A program made the position numbers and the translations under genes. DNA of 64,000 nucleotides, taken from positions 9,984-73,983 of the forward strand of contig JAGBNX010000016.1 of assembly GCA_017634155.1 (NCBI GenBank). Direction: 5' to 3'. This document shows, piece after piece, positions 14,904 to 62,283 of this stretch (within the stretch, counting starts at the first letter, position 1; the number at the start of each line of letters is the position of its first letter). The notes beneath the pieces are model-generated. The model was not told the origin of the DNA. It searched no databases and saw only the letters and a list, made by a program, of their open reading frames with translations. The DNA is from Clostridia bacterium (GTDB lineage Bacteria > Bacillota > Clostridia > Oscillospirales > Acutalibacteraceae).

Positions 14904-14990
14904 TGGCATCGCTAAAAAGATAAATATTTTCTCCGGCGCTGCCGGAGAATTTTTCCAATACTAATTATTAGCTTTGAAAGAAGCCTAATA
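14904..14990 (+). repeat. MITE-like intergenic repeat copy (5' TIR + core hairpin)
   Basis: GGCATCGCTAAAAAGATAAATATTT followed by TTCTCCGGC-GCT-GCCGGAGAA at 14929..14949, then a TTGAAAGAAGCC box. Confidence 0.6.
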
Positions 14991-14991
14991 T

Positions 14992-15633
14992 TTATTTTTC
15001 AGGAATTTTAAGTGTTTGCCCTTCGGTAACCTGATCAGATTGTAAATTATTCAGATTTATTATTTCATAAAATCTATTGCCATCACCTAAAAGTTTTAAT
15101 GAAATATTCCAAAGATTATCTCCCGGCTGAACAGTATAAATATTATTTTGATTTTTTAACGGAATTTTTAAAATTTGCCCCGGATATATAGTCTCGTTTT
15201 GCAAATTATTTAAACTCATAATCATGTTATATTTTGTCCAGGACCCAAGATAAGTGCGTGCAATATTCCATAAAGTATCTCCGCTTTCGACGTTATAAAG
15301 GAGCCAACCTGAAGACAAATTTTGTGGAATCAAAATCGTCTGACCCGGGTGAATATTATCGTCTTTAAGATGATTCAAATTTTGGATATCATAATATTTT
15401 TTGCCCGTACCTAAATAAGTTTGCGCAATTCCCCATAAAGTATCACCCGGTTTGACATTATAAACAACTGAACTAATGTTTTGATTTTCCATAAAATTAT
15501 TAGGAATAACTTGATTTGTCTCGATAATTTCAGAATTTTCTTGTTGCCAATTATTTTGTGCCGGCGACAAAATAACATTATTTTTGTTTGGCATTCTTCC
15601 TGTACCCATAACAGAATTTATGTTTGTACGCAA
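14992..15633 (-). CDS. Protein with three tandem LysM domains
   Basis: Three repeats of Y.V.PGD.LW.IA..YLG....Y..I..LN.L....I.PGQ.L.IP. TTG start 5 nt after GGAGG. Confidence 0.85.
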   Translation of the reverse strand: MRTNINSVMGTGRMPNKNNVILSPAQNNWQQENSEIIETNQVIPNNFMENQNISSVVYNVKPGDTLWGIAQTYLGTGKKYYDIQNLNHLKDDNIHPGQTILIPQNLSSGWLLYNVESGDTLWNIARTYLGSWTKYNMIMSLNNLQNETIYPGQILKIPLKNQNNIYTVQPGDNLWNISLKLLGDGNRFYEIINLNNLQSDQVTEGQTLKIPEK

Positions 15634-15771
15634 TTTTTCCTCCTAAATTATTATTCTGGAACACAGAAAATTGATTAATACATAATATTCCAGAATCAAA
15701 AACTTAGTGAAAAAATATTTTCCCTAAAAATAATACTAATTACACCTGGATACCAAAAAAAGAATTACCAA

Positions 15772-15984
15772 ATTGAAAGAAGCGATAAAAACTCACAGAA
15801 CATTAGACTTATTTCGAAATCGGCAACACATATATCCTCAGCGGCACCGGAGAGAACACTTCCGACCTAATTTTTAAGTTTCGAAATAAATTATTATTTT
15901 CATATATAAATTTAGTAATATAGAGGGCCAAACTACATTCTCCGGCGGTGCCGGAAGAAAATATATGTCTTTCTCAGCAACGCC
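15772..15984. repeat. Cluster of nested or fragmented MITE-like repeat copies
   Basis: Interior fragment GCGATAAAAACTCACAGAACATTAG is the reverse complement of CTAATGTTCTATGAATTTATCGC in the 35092 copy. Degenerate hairpin near 15836; intact hairpin TTCTCCGGC-GGT-GCCGGAAGA near 15939..15958; TIR TCTCAGCAACGCC ends at 15984. Confidence 0.55.
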
Positions 15985-16008
15985 CCAAAAAGATAATTAA
16001 TTAATTAA

Positions 16009-16904
16009 TTAATTATTAATCAAAATTTGCTTAGCAACATCGTCGTTGTTAAAATATTTAACAAGTGCGTCATAAAAATTTTTTCTGTTTTTTTCTTCCT
16101 GGGTCTTTGGGTTTGCAATATTAAATTCAGCAGTTATGTCTTTCACCTCGTACCTTCCAGGATTTCCGAATGGTTTATCTTCATGCACGATTGTTTTCTC
16201 AAAACAAACAGATAATTTTCCATTATTTGGTCTTACAACCGCTTTATCATAAAAATCAATAAAATTTTCTTGTTTTTCGCTACAAACATTGATGCCGTTT
16301 TTAACAGCAATATTATAAAAATCGGTTTTTAATTTTAAATTATAATCAACGTAATATTTAAACATGCAATCTCTAAAATCAATACTTGCTTTATTCAATG
16401 CCTCGCTTTCCAGTTTTGAATTTGTTACTTCTTTAAAATCGTCCATACACCTCCGCATACTGAAAACAATATACGATTTTTTTTGCTTTTCTAACCATTC
16501 AGAATTATACCTAATTTCCAATCCTCTTTCATCAAATTTAATACCATGTGATTTAAAATATTTACAATATTGAATGAAAAACTTCTTGCCTCGAGCAAGT
16601 TGACCAAACAACGAATTAGCCAAATGATAAACAAGAATACCTAACACTGCACTTACAACAGGACCAGACGCTAATACCCCATATTTTGCTGGCTTACTTA
16701 ATTTCTCAAACCAAGTACTAGCATTGCCGGATATATCTCTATTACTAAAATTCGGATTTGATCGATTAGTCGCCCCCCTACTGTCCCAAGGGTTTGCGGG
16801 CTTTTCACCTGATTTTTGTTTGTATTCATTGCCGAACTCTTACTACCAAAAAGTGCCATGAAAGCCAACGCAACTGCGATTTTTTTTCTATCAAATTTCG
16901 ACAT
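16009..16904 (-). pseudogene. Accessory-family gene (subfamily A) interrupted by a -1 frame break at a C6/G6 tract
   Basis: GGAGGT RBS + ATG 16904 gives MSKFDRKKIAVALAFMALFGSKSSA...TVGG, then stops at 16698. The -1 frame continues ATNRSNPNFSNRDISGNASTWFEKLSKPAKYGVLASGPVVSAVLGILVYH into ORF 16009..16647. One extra G in the run at 16773..16778 restores a single ORF. Confidence 0.75.
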
Positions 16905-17119
16905 AAAATCAACCTCCATTTATAATTATTCGAACGCTTAAAACCCTAACCGAACTCTCAACTGTATAAACGACTGGCTCATTGTACAATATTGAAAAAA
17001 ATTTGTCAAATAAAAACTAAAGGTATTGCTAAAATCAAATATATTTAGAAAAATTGCAGGAACTATCCAAGGGAGATAATAACCTAAAATGATGCAATTT
17101 ATTGTCATGATATTTTATT

Positions 17120-60460: not shown

Positions 60461-60645
60461 AAAATTCTCCTTAAATTGAGTCAAACTACAAGCTGACAGT
60501 AAGCCAAACAATACAGACGTTAATATAAGCTAGACTTATCATCCATAATTATAATAACAACAAGCAATCTCTTTGTCAAGACATTTTTTCAAAATTATTG
60601 AATTTTTAATGATTTTTTTTATTTTACTGTTTCTACTCTATTTTT

Positions 60646-60776
60646 GTAATGCTAAAAAAGATAGATATTTTCTCCGGTACCGCCGGAAAAAATGTTTTAA
60701 TTCTTTCATTACTATATTTGTACATGGAATTAATGTTCTATGCATTTTTATCGCTGATATTCATTTTAGCAATACC
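60646..60776 (+). mobile_element. MITE-like repeat, full-length copy with terminal inverted repeats
   Basis: 5' GTAATGCTAAAAAAGATAGATATTT; hairpin at about 60669..60690; interior TAATGTTCTATGCATTTTTATCGC; 3' TTTAGCAATACC at 60765..60776. Confidence 0.65.
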
Positions 60777-60956
60777 CTCAGGTTCATTTTGATTGAAAAT
60801 ATTTTTATATATAATACAGTACGGGACGGGTAAGTTTTTGGATTTTAGTTTGGGTCATAAAGTAGTTGAATTGATAATAAATTATTGGTGTGGCCATAAA
60901 TTCAAAGCTTTGATTTATTTTTATTTTAAAATTTAAAATAATATTTGGAGGTTAAT

Positions 60957-62090
60957 ATGCCAAAAAAAATTAAGACCAAGTTAGCATTAATATTGGCGAT
61001 AGGTTTATCAACAACACCAGTTTTAGCTATGGAACCAATAATAGAGAAACAAAATGATAAAAAATTTTCAAGTTTAAAAAGCAATTTGACGGATGAAAGG
61101 TTTCTTAAACATATCGAAGGTCTGGATAATTGTTCTACTCTTTTGCCTATTGCTGGTAAAAAAACTTTACTTAACTTTATTCTAGTGGGTTGTTACGCTA
61201 TAAGTCGGGTTTTATATACATTGGGCGGTGGTTGGAATGCAGAAGACGATGGAGCATCTAAGTTAGCAAAGACTATAGGGCTTGCTAAGTCTATTTTAGA
61301 TTTTACTCGTTCACATTACAGCAAAAGTAAGCCTAATACAGAAAGTACGGAAACATACAAATTTGAAGTAAATGGTGAAATAAAAGAAAGTGAAGCAAAA
61401 ATTGAGGCTAGAGACGAAAGAGGCAACACTATTTTAAAGAATGGTTCAAAATTCGATATGTTTAAATATATTTATGATGGTTTTGACTGTTCTGGTTTTG
61501 TAGGTTGGATTGTTTATAACACGTTAAATACAGAAAATGACAATGGAGAAGGATATGTAGGGTCATCTACTACAAGGGCAGAGTTTTTTAGCAAAAAGGG
61601 GTGGGGAGAGTTAAAACAAATTACCAAAGAACAAATAGAAAATGGCACCTATGAGCTTTACCCTGGAGATATAGTGAGTATTCAAGGGCATGTGTATATT
61701 TCTTTAGGTAAATGCAATGATGGCAGTGTTGTCTTATTGCATTCTAGTCCTCCTGGTGTTTGGATTATGGGAACAACTGATAAAGACGGAAATAAAAATA
61801 GTGACGCTATTAAACTTGCTGAAAAATACGGTCAGAAATATCCAACAGCGTATAAGTGGCTGAAAGAAATTGAGAAAAAGGGAGTTGAAAGGGAATGGAA
61901 GAAATATTTTGAAGACCCTATTGAAAATTCTATTAGAGATCCTAACAAAAAGCCAGTAACACGTCTTGTCTGGTATGTTGACGGTGAGAAAGGTGTTTTA
62001 ACTGACCCAGAAGGTATTCGGAAAATGTCTCCAGAAAAAGTACTTGGTTATATTTTTGGTAATGAAAGTGACATATTACAAAAAAGTTGA
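60957..62090 (+). CDS. NlpC/P60-like cysteine peptidase with a family-type leader
   Basis: Catalytic Cys context FDCSGFVGWIV and His context GDIVSIQGHVYISLG. Leader MPKKIKTKLALILAIGLSTTPVLA. Track start 60945 is TTG inside GGAGG. Confidence 0.65.
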   Translation: MPKKIKTKLALILAIGLSTTPVLAMEPIIEKQNDKKFSSLKSNLTDERFLKHIEGLDNCSTLLPIAGKKTLLNFILVGCYAISRVLYTLGGGWNAEDDGASKLAKTIGLAKSILDFTRSHYSKSKPNTESTETYKFEVNGEIKESEAKIEARDERGNTILKNGSKFDMFKYIYDGFDCSGFVGWIVYNTLNTENDNGEGYVGSSTTRAEFFSKKGWGELKQITKEQIENGTYELYPGDIVSIQGHVYISLGKCNDGSVVLLHSSPPGVWIMGTTDKDGNKNSDAIKLAEKYGQKYPTAYKWLKEIEKKGVEREWKKYFEDPIENSIRDPNKKPVTRLVWYVDGEKGVLTDPEGIRKMSPEKVLGYIFGNESDILQKS

Positions 62091-62100
62091 AGAAAAGAAG

Positions 62101-62125
62101 ACTCTGGAATATCCGGAGTTTTTTC
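62101..62125 (+). terminator. Intrinsic terminator
   Basis: 8-bp stem ACTCTGGA/TCCGGAGT (one G-U pair), 3-nt loop, then TTTTT; 10 nt after the stop at 62090. Confidence 0.6.
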
Positions 62126-62210
62126 ATACGTACTTAAAAAAGGTATTACTAAAATTATATAAATTTAGTGAAAAGATAAAACATGCCAAAAAATAAAATA
62201 GCCTAAAATC

Positions 62211-62283
62211 ATCATTGTTAAATAAAGATAGATAATTTCTCCGGCACTGCTGTAGAAACCGTCTGTCTTTGTTTAGCAATGCC
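62211..62283 (+). mobile_element. MITE-like repeat, short version
   Basis: ATCATTGTTAAATAAAGATAGATAATTTCTCCGGC-ACT-GCTGTAGAAA...TGTTTAGCAATGCC (3' TIR 62272..62283). Confidence 0.6.

Follow-up and report, generated by a model that had tools for sequence, protein, structure and literature searches.

A family of IS1-type miniature elements and a second, IS5-type family with the same GC-rich hairpin in a reduced Clostridia genome

Introduction

Insertion sequences (ISs) of the IS1 family have ends of the form GGnnnTG and generate duplications of 8-9 bp. One published member carries the terminal inverted repeat (TIR) GGTGGTGTTTCAAAAAGTATGCTG and 8-bp target-site duplications (TSDs) (PMC6382973). 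MITEAba12, a short non-coding miniature inverted-repeat transposable element (MITE) derived from the IS5 family, has TIRs identical to those of a resident IS, is flanked by 9-bp TSDs and is thought to be moved in trans (PMC6382973). In Streptococcus pneumoniae, the repeat families BOX, RUP and SPRITE cluster and insert into one another; RUP derives from IS630, and SPRITE contains a hairpin resembling a Rho-independent terminator (PMC3049150; PMC10969869). In-frame palindromic inserts are a behaviour reported for the Rickettsia palindromic elements (RPEs) (reviewed in PMC10969869). Here, a set of interspersed repeats is described in a 64,000-nt stretch of a Clostridia bacterium genome (contig C10, positions 9984-73983; hereafter the window). 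The repeats are very probably non-autonomous transposable elements of the MITE type residing in a reduced genome of ~0.9 Mb. IS1-derived elements, termed MITE-A, are mixed with a second, IS5-driven family, MITE-B, which bears the same GC-rich hairpin.

The genome (code G000) is a metagenome-assembled genome (MAG) of 912,766 bp in 64 contigs, with a G+C content of ~30%. Contigs are numbered in the style C1, and relatives are coded likewise (G003, G004, G005, G008 and others). The host is an uncultured rumen Clostridia bacterium, probably belonging to a small-genome clade of the Acutalibacteraceae. A recent preprint describes a small, low-GC clade of this family that includes protist endosymbionts and candidate symbionts of rumen ciliates (10.1101/2025.07.29.667580), and the present genome probably falls within it.

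Results

MITE-A is a 133-bp interspersed element

MITE-A is non-coding, contains no long open reading frame (ORF) and has the consensus GGCATTGCTAAAAAAGATAGATATTT-TCTCCGGCAACGCCGGAGA-AAGTGATTTGGTTCTTTTACTACATTTATTTATACATGAAGATAATGTTCTATGAATTTTCATCACTTCTATTCATTTTGGCAATACC. Its TIRs start with GGYATTG (TIR consensus GGYATTGMNAAAAWRWATAGA), individual ends reading GGCATTG or GGCACTG. The 5' end, GGCATTGCTAAAAAAGATAGA, and the 3' end, which reads GGTATTGCCAAAATGAATAGA as its reverse complement, pair with each other in the predicted fold. Within the window, the hairpin TCTCCGGC-N3-GCCGGAGA occurs 10 times at up to two mismatches and never in 100 shuffles, and the 12-nt end GGCATTGCTAAA occurs eight times at up to one mismatch against 0.63 expected. 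An nhmmer profile seeded from the single copy C31:464-596 and iterated over the whole genome recovers 49 full-length copies, ~29 of which are near-identical. By BLAST, eight copies are 100% identical. Many MITE-A copies lie at contig ends. A census with one model per family and non-overlapping assignment (E<1e-3 in the window) counts 61 near-full MITE-A copies and ~195 repeat segments of all families, together ~2% of genome bases; the window holds 14 segments or fragments, all of them intergenic.

An earlier sequence-only reading of the window had proposed a MITE-like family of about 20 copies with 12-nt TIRs. The family itself is borne out, as copies across the genome share ends and TIRs well beyond the hairpin and display 8-bp TSDs and nested insertions. 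The 5' consensus given there is the genome-wide consensus letter for letter, and the 133-bp consensus also holds its interior motif and its 3' end. The TIR is in fact longer, ~22 nt, and imperfect, and the copy number drops to the 14 elements and fragments of the census, the pair at 52296-52388 being too degenerate to score. The supposition that the element belongs to no catalogued family agrees with a search of Rfam only, in which no family matches the element and the sole match in the window is a tRNA. The MITE-A system is new as a family; the kind of element, a MITE, is already well known.

Insertion footprints of MITE-A

The window copies are old and degenerate, with no TSDs left. The young, near-identical copies are found on contig C10 just beyond the window (2625-2757, 6576-6708 and 92317-92449) and on other contigs, often at contig ends. 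Both flanks are assembled for 26 young copies. A perfect TSD of at least 8 bp borders 12 of these, and three more match at seven of eight positions; when the left flank of one copy is set against the right flank of another, seven or more matches arise in fewer than 1% of cases. The TSDs include TTAGAACT, GAATCAAA, AAATATTG, TTTAGCAT, TTTGTCAT, ATATTTCC, TATTTAAA and TAGAAAAA. A paralogous empty site is found at C30:82-214, where MITE-A breaks the 3' part of an IS1 transposase gene with the TSD TTTGTCAT. The interrupted gene reads ...CGTCTTCTTTGTCAT-MITE-TTTGTCATTACCTCGC..., and its intact paralogs on C6 and C13 read ...CGTCTTCTTCGTCATTACCTTGC.... Nesting occurs in both directions, with MITE-A inside MITE-B at C10:2625-2757 and MITE-B inside MITE-A at 15804-15893 of the window.

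Several other MITE-A insertions have distinct surroundings. At C41:155-287, a copy with the TSD GCTTCTGT interrupts a putative IS3-like (integrase-type) transposase gene, as read by eye from the translation. The young copy at C23:184-316 is bordered by 8-nt flanks, TTTGTTAG and CTAACAAA, that are mutually reverse complementary instead of direct repeats, which could reflect a palindromic target or a past inversion; cross-matching of flanks between copies for recombination signatures gave nothing beyond one shared TSD and one inverted pair. At C31:464-1651, MITE-A copies stand on both sides of a tadA-like deaminase gene, two of them forward and one reversed. The layout resembles a composite transposon, and no 8-bp duplication is common to the outer flanks. 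Ahead of the right copy at this locus, a short remnant of an ORF reads ...SPIELLWGNLEFYIRHF; a search of the genome for the DDE_3 domain detected none.

A candidate IS1-family parent, and family C

The window contains no transposase gene, as had been stated from its sequence. Elsewhere, the genome carries an IS1-family IS with ends matching MITE-A and an IS5-family IS for the second family. The flanks of the C30 insertion translate to ...VERMNRLLCHYLARFARKTYCWSRPLSM, which has an IS1-like look. The Pfam model DDE_Tnp_IS1 (PF03400) has 13 matches in the genome, the best with an E-value of 4e-32, and matches in nine of ten genus genomes. The C-terminal half of the transposase recurs at at least 20 contig ends with 97-100% amino-acid identity, so the IS is present in multiple copies that the assembler collapsed. 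The IS is ~0.7 kb long and consists of an InsA part with a zinc finger and helix-turn-helix (HTH), an A-run frameshift window and an InsB part of the DDE type. Its left inverted repeat, GGTATTGACAAAATATATAGAAAA, is seen at six contig ends, followed by the zinc-finger/HTH InsA-like ORF and an A9 run. The right end reads ...CTTCTATTCATTTTGGCAATGCC, and the right inverted repeat, GGCATTGCCAAAATGAATAGAAGG as its reverse complement, matches the 3' end of MITE-A at 23 of 25 positions. The transposase, a conceptual join of contig-end pieces rather than a contiguous assembly, with one junction codon read through, scores 187 bits (cut-off 100) against NCBIfam NF033558 (IS1 family transposase), and the match spans the full profile. 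A sister MAG holds contiguous, pseudogenised IS1 copies of ~720 bp with the same layout and ends. The ends of MITE-A and its 8-bp TSDs fit the GGnnnTG, 8-9-bp form of the IS1 family. IS1595 and ISL3, suggested as parents by the 8-bp TSD and the GGC ends, were rejected, with no match to PF12762 and none significant to PF01610 in the ten genus genomes.

Family C is 165 bp long and is composed of an IS1-type TIR, the hairpin and A+T7, joined to the last ~110 nt of the IS1 element; since a hairpin-bearing left end is joined to the end of the IS in this way, family C is a deletion derivative of IS1. The suspicion raised by this structure, that the hairpin belongs to the left end of the parent IS, was discarded: the IS1-type left ends at six contig ends and the copies of the relative are free of it. 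The IS5-family element on C45 likewise lacks this hairpin, so that neither parent IS contains it. A second, more distant IS1-family element lies at C30:23207-23874, with InsA and InsB frames apparently intact (NF033558, 167 bits); a first-type copy directly abuts it with its right end.

MITE-B, an IS5-family element and chimeras

Clustering of the hairpins outside MITE-A, together with reading of the contigs, distinguishes three further types, B, C and D. MITE-B is ~90 bp long and near-palindromic, centred on the GC hairpin (TAGACTTCTTTCGAAAC...hairpin...GTTTCGAAAGAAGTCTA). Its 17-bp TIRs are identical to those (TAGACTTCTTTCGAAAC, GTTTCGAAAGAAGTCTA) bounding a 924-bp IS at C45:160-1083, the transposase of which, read across one A-run frameshift, matches NF033581 at 200 bits (cut-off 140) and belongs to the IS5 family. 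AAT or ATT (a 3-nt A-W-T) flanks 24 of the 34 MITE-B ends. An IS630 (DDE_3) parent for this family was dropped, as the genome has no match to it and the C45 element fits instead.

The two families share ~40 bp about the hairpin (AGATATTY-hairpin-RARTG.TTT). Type D elements are chimeras in which the left end and hairpin of MITE-A are joined to the right arm of MITE-B, for example at 14905-14987 of the window.

Contig C45 (1-3748) is dense in mobile DNA. Besides the IS5-family IS and a broken IS200-type tnpA abutting it, the contig contains a Fic-like gene, a DJ-1/PfpI-like gene and an intact IS200-type tnpA with a related GC hairpin, CCCCCGGCACAGCCGGGGG, upstream.

The shared hairpin

The hairpin common to all families reads TCTCCGGC-RNY-GCCGGAGA. 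It is present in 152 copies genome-wide at up to three mismatches, 60 of them perfect. The loop, previously described as variable, is free only in its middle base and conforms to R-N-Y in 56 of the 60 copies with a perfect stem, so the hairpin amounts to a near-perfect GC palindrome of 19 nt in which a single base, the central one, is free. A stem of 8-9 bp is always present (-17.1 kcal/mol, z -5.5). Whole elements form longer fold-backs with the hairpin inside (MITE-A, -38.4 kcal/mol, z -5.2; MITE-B, -47.6 kcal/mol, z -8.5).

Compensated arm changes, noticed before in the copy near 54640, extend across the genome. Of the 39 copies that depart from the consensus at exactly two positions, 10 carry compensating changes that keep Watson-Crick pairing, spread over six different places in the stem. 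The expectation is 1.5 in simulations based on the observed substitution spectrum, with at most 7 in 2000 runs. Many other copies are simply decaying. The pattern of substitutions indicates that pairing of the hairpin is maintained.

Gene context of the hairpins

Genes were mapped crudely, by longest ORF (793 genes, 84% coding). On this map, the hairpin is present in 35 of the 99 spacers between convergent genes, in 47 of the 436 tandem spacers and in 21 of the 102 divergent ones. In tandem spacers, it is positioned a median of 56 nt past the upstream stop and 196 nt before the next start, and canonical T-runs there are in the sense direction in nine cases and antisense in two. The copy at 24454-24472, followed by T6, is the one canonical terminator-like copy among those of the window, which upholds the earlier terminator proposal for this site. 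Between 14 and 34 kb of the window, the hairpins are the top-ranked terminator-like sites. In the segment 44001-64000, terminator-like stem-loops number 12 against 10.1 in shuffles, with no excess. The repeat hairpins aside, the genome seems to have few strong intrinsic terminators.

Distribution among relatives and in-frame inserts

Four of the nine genus mates carry MITE-A (G003, G004, G005 and G008); the 41 relatives searched include no carrier from another genus. At up to one mismatch, the hairpin is counted 89 times in G000, 196 in G003, 84 in G008 and nine in G004, with none in the other five genus mates and 0-1 elsewhere. The hairpin and MITE-A occur in the same subclade, and the hairpin is found only there. 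The IS1 transposase is older and wider than either, occurring in nine of ten genus genomes, and more distant homologues are present in Acutalibacteraceae and Oscillospiraceae MAGs. A search of 185,579 species genomes for the exact TIR gave only two, both of them sister Clostridia MAGs; the junction from TIR to hairpin is found in one metagenome contig.

Ten hairpins genome-wide are located inside called ORFs. In the gene for pyruvate:ferredoxin oxidoreductase (PFOR; C51:~2290-2380, locus L098), a 90-bp MITE-B forms exactly 30 codons between two ferredoxin-type Cys clusters, and the ORF stays open. The insert is also present in G003. G008, ~92% identical around the site, lacks precisely this segment and offers an orthologous empty site; the insert is likewise missing from seven further genus mates and from 24 family genomes outside the genus. 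The ribulose-phosphate 3-epimerase gene rpe (C38:~2660-2730, locus L125) contains an in-frame insert of ~22 codons with the hairpin ACTCCGGCGCGGCTGGAGA in an intact ORF, and this insert is absent in all nine genus mates. Hairpins in long ORFs at C7:4938-4956 and C13:7147-7165, in one comEC-like and in one dnaX-like ORF are candidates for further in-frame inserts.

Copies within the window

The repeats of the window comprise several structural types. The element at 14905-14987 (+) is an A/B chimera of type D, in which an IS1-type left TIR (GGCATCGCTAAAAAGATAAATATTT) is followed by a perfect hairpin (14930-14948) with A+T5 and by a B-type right arm ending in GCTTTGAAAGAAGCCTA. A reversed MITE-A at 15766-15984 (-; hairpin 15939-15957) is split into two pieces, 15766-15803 and 15894-15984, by the nested, palindromic MITE-B of ~90 bp at 15804-15893 (unstranded; TIRs TAGACTTATTTCGAAA...TTTCGAAATAAATTA). 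Downstream of the plus-strand gene at 22401-23186, a fragment at 23193-23267 (-) combines a B-type arm with a decayed hairpin (23226-23244) and with a TIR of the IS1 type (reverse complement AGCATTGTTAAAAAAAATAGA). The terminator-like copy already mentioned is part of a partial type D element at 24452-24506 (+), 103 nt downstream of the plus-strand gene at 23590-24351. A solo 5' end at 25062-25100 (+) consists of the TIR GGCATTGCTAAAAAAAATAAATATTT and a decayed hairpin. An old MITE-A at 25649-25775 (-; hairpin 25744-25762) covers model positions 14-131 and lies in a divergent spacer. Between convergent genes, the MITE-A at 26809-27004 (-) has ~67 bp of its interior duplicated in tandem, the hairpin included (26893-26911 and 26960-26978).

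In the right part of the window, the MITE-A at 35113-35237 (+), between recJ and a tRNA gene, holds the B-type right-arm sequence GAGTATTTCAAGTTCAATTTTTTCGTTTCGAAAGAATTCTA at its centre and is therefore an A/B chimera. At 39669-39704 (unstranded), a bare hairpin core without TIRs is accompanied by a decayed second hairpin near 39768-39790, within a local direct duplication of ~195 bp. The hairpin at 54620-54676 (unstranded), between parC and the convergent gene at 54718-55872, has altered arms, CTCCAGC/GTTGGAG, that still pair. The best-preserved MITE-A of the window is at 60647-60776 (+), covering model positions 3-133 at 97-99 bits. The element at 62211-62283 (+) is a short MITE-A derivative with an internal deletion, in which both ends are kept and the hairpin is decayed.

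The region around the bare core, 39620-39850, is marked by a direct repeat of ~25 nt (ATATAACATAATTTGTTTATTTTT.ATATATAT), whose copies, ~195 bp apart, bracket one good and one decayed hairpin. The repeat pair is situated upstream of a P-type ATPase gene and is a local duplication, not a transposon copy.

The full copies listed in the sequence-only reading are recovered by nhmmer at 35113-35237, 60647-60776 and, reversed, 25649-25775, as is the short copy, at 62213-62283. Its tandem and nested forms resolve differently from site to site: at 15804-15893, MITE-B is indeed nested in a reversed MITE-A, and 26809-27004 is a single MITE-A with its duplication, while 39669-39704 is a bare hairpin in a local duplication. 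The picture of one uniform family with solo hairpins gives way to a heterogeneous set, in which the supposed solo hairpin at 14929 belongs to the chimera at 14905-14987.

Discussion

The best explanation of these repeats is that two families of MITEs, moved by unrelated transposases, carry one hairpin module. An IS1-type transposase would bind the imperfect 22-nt TIRs (GGYATTGMNAAAAWRWATAGA) and, through an 8-bp staggered cut at insertion, produce the 8-bp TSDs, mobilising MITE-A (133 bp) and family C (165 bp) in trans. The IS5-family transposase would move MITE-B through the 17-bp TIRs (TAGACTTCTTTCGAAAC). The hairpin core of ~40 bp is regarded as a passenger module spread by transposition; the A/B chimeras show that it is exchanged between the families. 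After insertion, the module would most likely work as a stem-loop in RNA at the 3' ends of genes, with a subset of copies serving as true intrinsic terminators and the remainder possibly as 3'-end stabilisers or barriers. The hairpin may also help the element to fold back on itself.

A number of observations weigh against this explanation or some part of it. Fourteen of the 26 young copies have no perfect TSD. When the joined flanks of seven young intergenic MITE-A copies were compared with the genus and with the G008 regions, the flanks fell on different contigs or the spacers were too diverged or rearranged to align; empty sites are shown for the IS1 gene on C30 and for PFOR. No complete copy of the IS1 parent of MITE-A is assembled in the MAG: it was pieced together from contig ends, guided by the pseudogenised ~720-bp copies of the relative, and that its transposase acts in trans is something we infer. 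Intrastrand template switching is another possible source of compensated changes in a DNA palindrome, and it involves no selection on RNA. The positional statistics depend on the crude gene map, the orientation of MITE-A relative to genes is random (11 versus 9), and MITE-A is commoner in divergent (13) than in convergent (6) spacers. A T-run of at least four within 3 nt of the stem accompanies only 30 of 151 hairpins. A proper U-tract is present in just ~20% of copies, which makes a terminator role plausible for a subset only, of which 24454-24472 with its T6 is probably a real member; a general role of the stem-loop in RNA is presumed.

One rival reading holds that the copies are merely similar intrinsic terminators, kept in place by function and never mobile. 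Some copies are canonical (24454-24472 with T6, C45:2868-2886 with T5, family C with A+T7), and the hairpin is enriched between convergent genes and lies nearer to upstream stops. The shared 133 bp, however, far exceed the hairpin, and they come with TIRs, TSDs, near-identical copies at contig breaks and nested insertions; elements have also inserted inside genes, the motif is absent from five of nine genus mates, and ~80% of the hairpins have no U-tract. The TSDs and the paralogous empty site refute this reading as a complete explanation, leaving it a negligible probability, and it survives as a role acquired after insertion by a subset. Alternatively, the hairpins could be palindromes of the repetitive extragenic palindromic (REP) or bacterial interspersed mosaic element (BIME) type, spread by a Y1 tyrosine transposase (REP-associated tyrosine transposase, RAYT), with the TIR-bearing forms secondary. 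The 19-nt near-perfect palindrome in ~150 copies, intergenic and sometimes solo or paired, speaks for such an origin, as does a Y1 transposase gene at C45:2972-3481 adjoined by GC hairpins of related core (CCCCCGGC-ACA-GCCGGGGG and CCTCCGGC-ATA-GCCGGAGG). Yet the Y1 protein matches the IS200 equivalog NF033573 (148 bits) and is an ordinary IS200 TnpA, no inverted family hairpins flank it, and the only Y1 genes of the genome are of the IS200 type. Most of the hairpins, moreover, occupy a fixed position in elements with TIRs and with 8-bp or 3-nt flanking duplications, which REPs do not make, and a conserved GTAG-like 5' tetranucleotide is missing. The reading thus fails on these points and is very unlikely.

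A different proposal accepts the MITEs and concerns the hairpin alone, which would be kept for the sake of transposition. Acting as a nucleus for fold-back or as a host-factor site, it would make the MITEs more mobile and have no effect on host expression. Two families with unrelated transposases carry the module and neither parent IS does, whole elements form the long fold-backs described above, and MITE-A has no orientation bias. However, the DDE transposases of IS1 or IS5 are not known to require an internal hairpin. The hairpins outside MITE-A are enriched at convergent 3' ends, sense T-runs outnumber antisense ones, and in the short derivative at 62211-62283, as in several fragments, the ends persist beside a decaying hairpin. 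A role confined to transposition is doubtful, if conceivable. With the MITE reading retained, a bolder and tentative extension, which we consider rather unlikely, is that the 19-nt GC palindrome is a portable functional cassette and not inert cargo. It would have been captured independently by IS1-type and IS5-type MITEs and, within a single subclade of probably protist-associated Acutalibacteraceae, would have reached 90-200 sites in each genome of 0.9 Mb. There it would supply most of the strong RNA stem-loops, as terminators or 3'-end protectors, in a genome otherwise almost devoid of them, and the same elements would remodel essential enzymes by in-frame insertion, as a Firmicute counterpart of the Rickettsia RPEs.

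MITEs and their IS parents are well established, and the same is true of repeats that bear terminators and of palindromic inserts kept in frame; what is gained here is one more case, well resolved, and no new principle. The less ordinary features are the single hairpin module common to MITE families with different transposases and the inserts in PFOR and Rpe; both have precedents. Copies of IS1 and MITE-A at dozens of contig ends explain the fragmentation of the MAG. The elements mark a recent burst of ISs and MITEs in a reduced, probably host-associated genome, a pattern anticipated for the early phase of host restriction. No other stem-loops in the spacers are as strong as the hairpins, which annotation would label as terminators; most of them are transposon cargo.

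In comparison with known systems, the IS1 family (IS1 of E. coli; the ISAba3-like element, PMC6382973) is matched in the GGnnnTG ends followed by an A-run, the 8-bp TSDs, the IS of ~0.7 kb and the NF033558 and PF03400 matches. MITE-A differs in that it has only its ends of ~22-25 nt in common with the IS, from which no part of the MITE-A interior, the GC hairpin included, derives; only family C is a plain internal-deletion derivative. REP and BIME sequences with their RAYTs resemble the present repeats as short GC-rich palindromes, highly repeated and extragenic, whereas the elements here have TIRs and TSDs, the genome has no RAYT, and its Y1 genes are those of IS200. The pneumococcal BOX, RUP and SPRITE repeats offer a parallel in a Firmicute genome, with several small interspersed families, one derived from an IS and one with a terminator-like hairpin. 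The parents here, in contrast, are IS1 and IS5, one hairpin module extends across different TIRs, and there is no sequence similarity to the pneumococcal repeats. RPEs are likewise palindromic repeats of ~100-150 bp in a reduced, probably host-associated genome, with in-frame copies in conserved enzymes (30 codons in PFOR and ~22 in Rpe in the present case). Here, in another phylum, the copies are mostly intergenic with a handful intragenic, and, unlike in RPEs, parents and TSDs can be identified. MITEAba12 is the counterpart of MITE-B, which is also short and non-coding and has TIRs identical to those of a resident IS5-family IS; MITE-B, however, is flanked by a 3-nt A-W-T instead of a 9-bp TSD and forms a near-perfect 90-bp palindrome on the GC hairpin.

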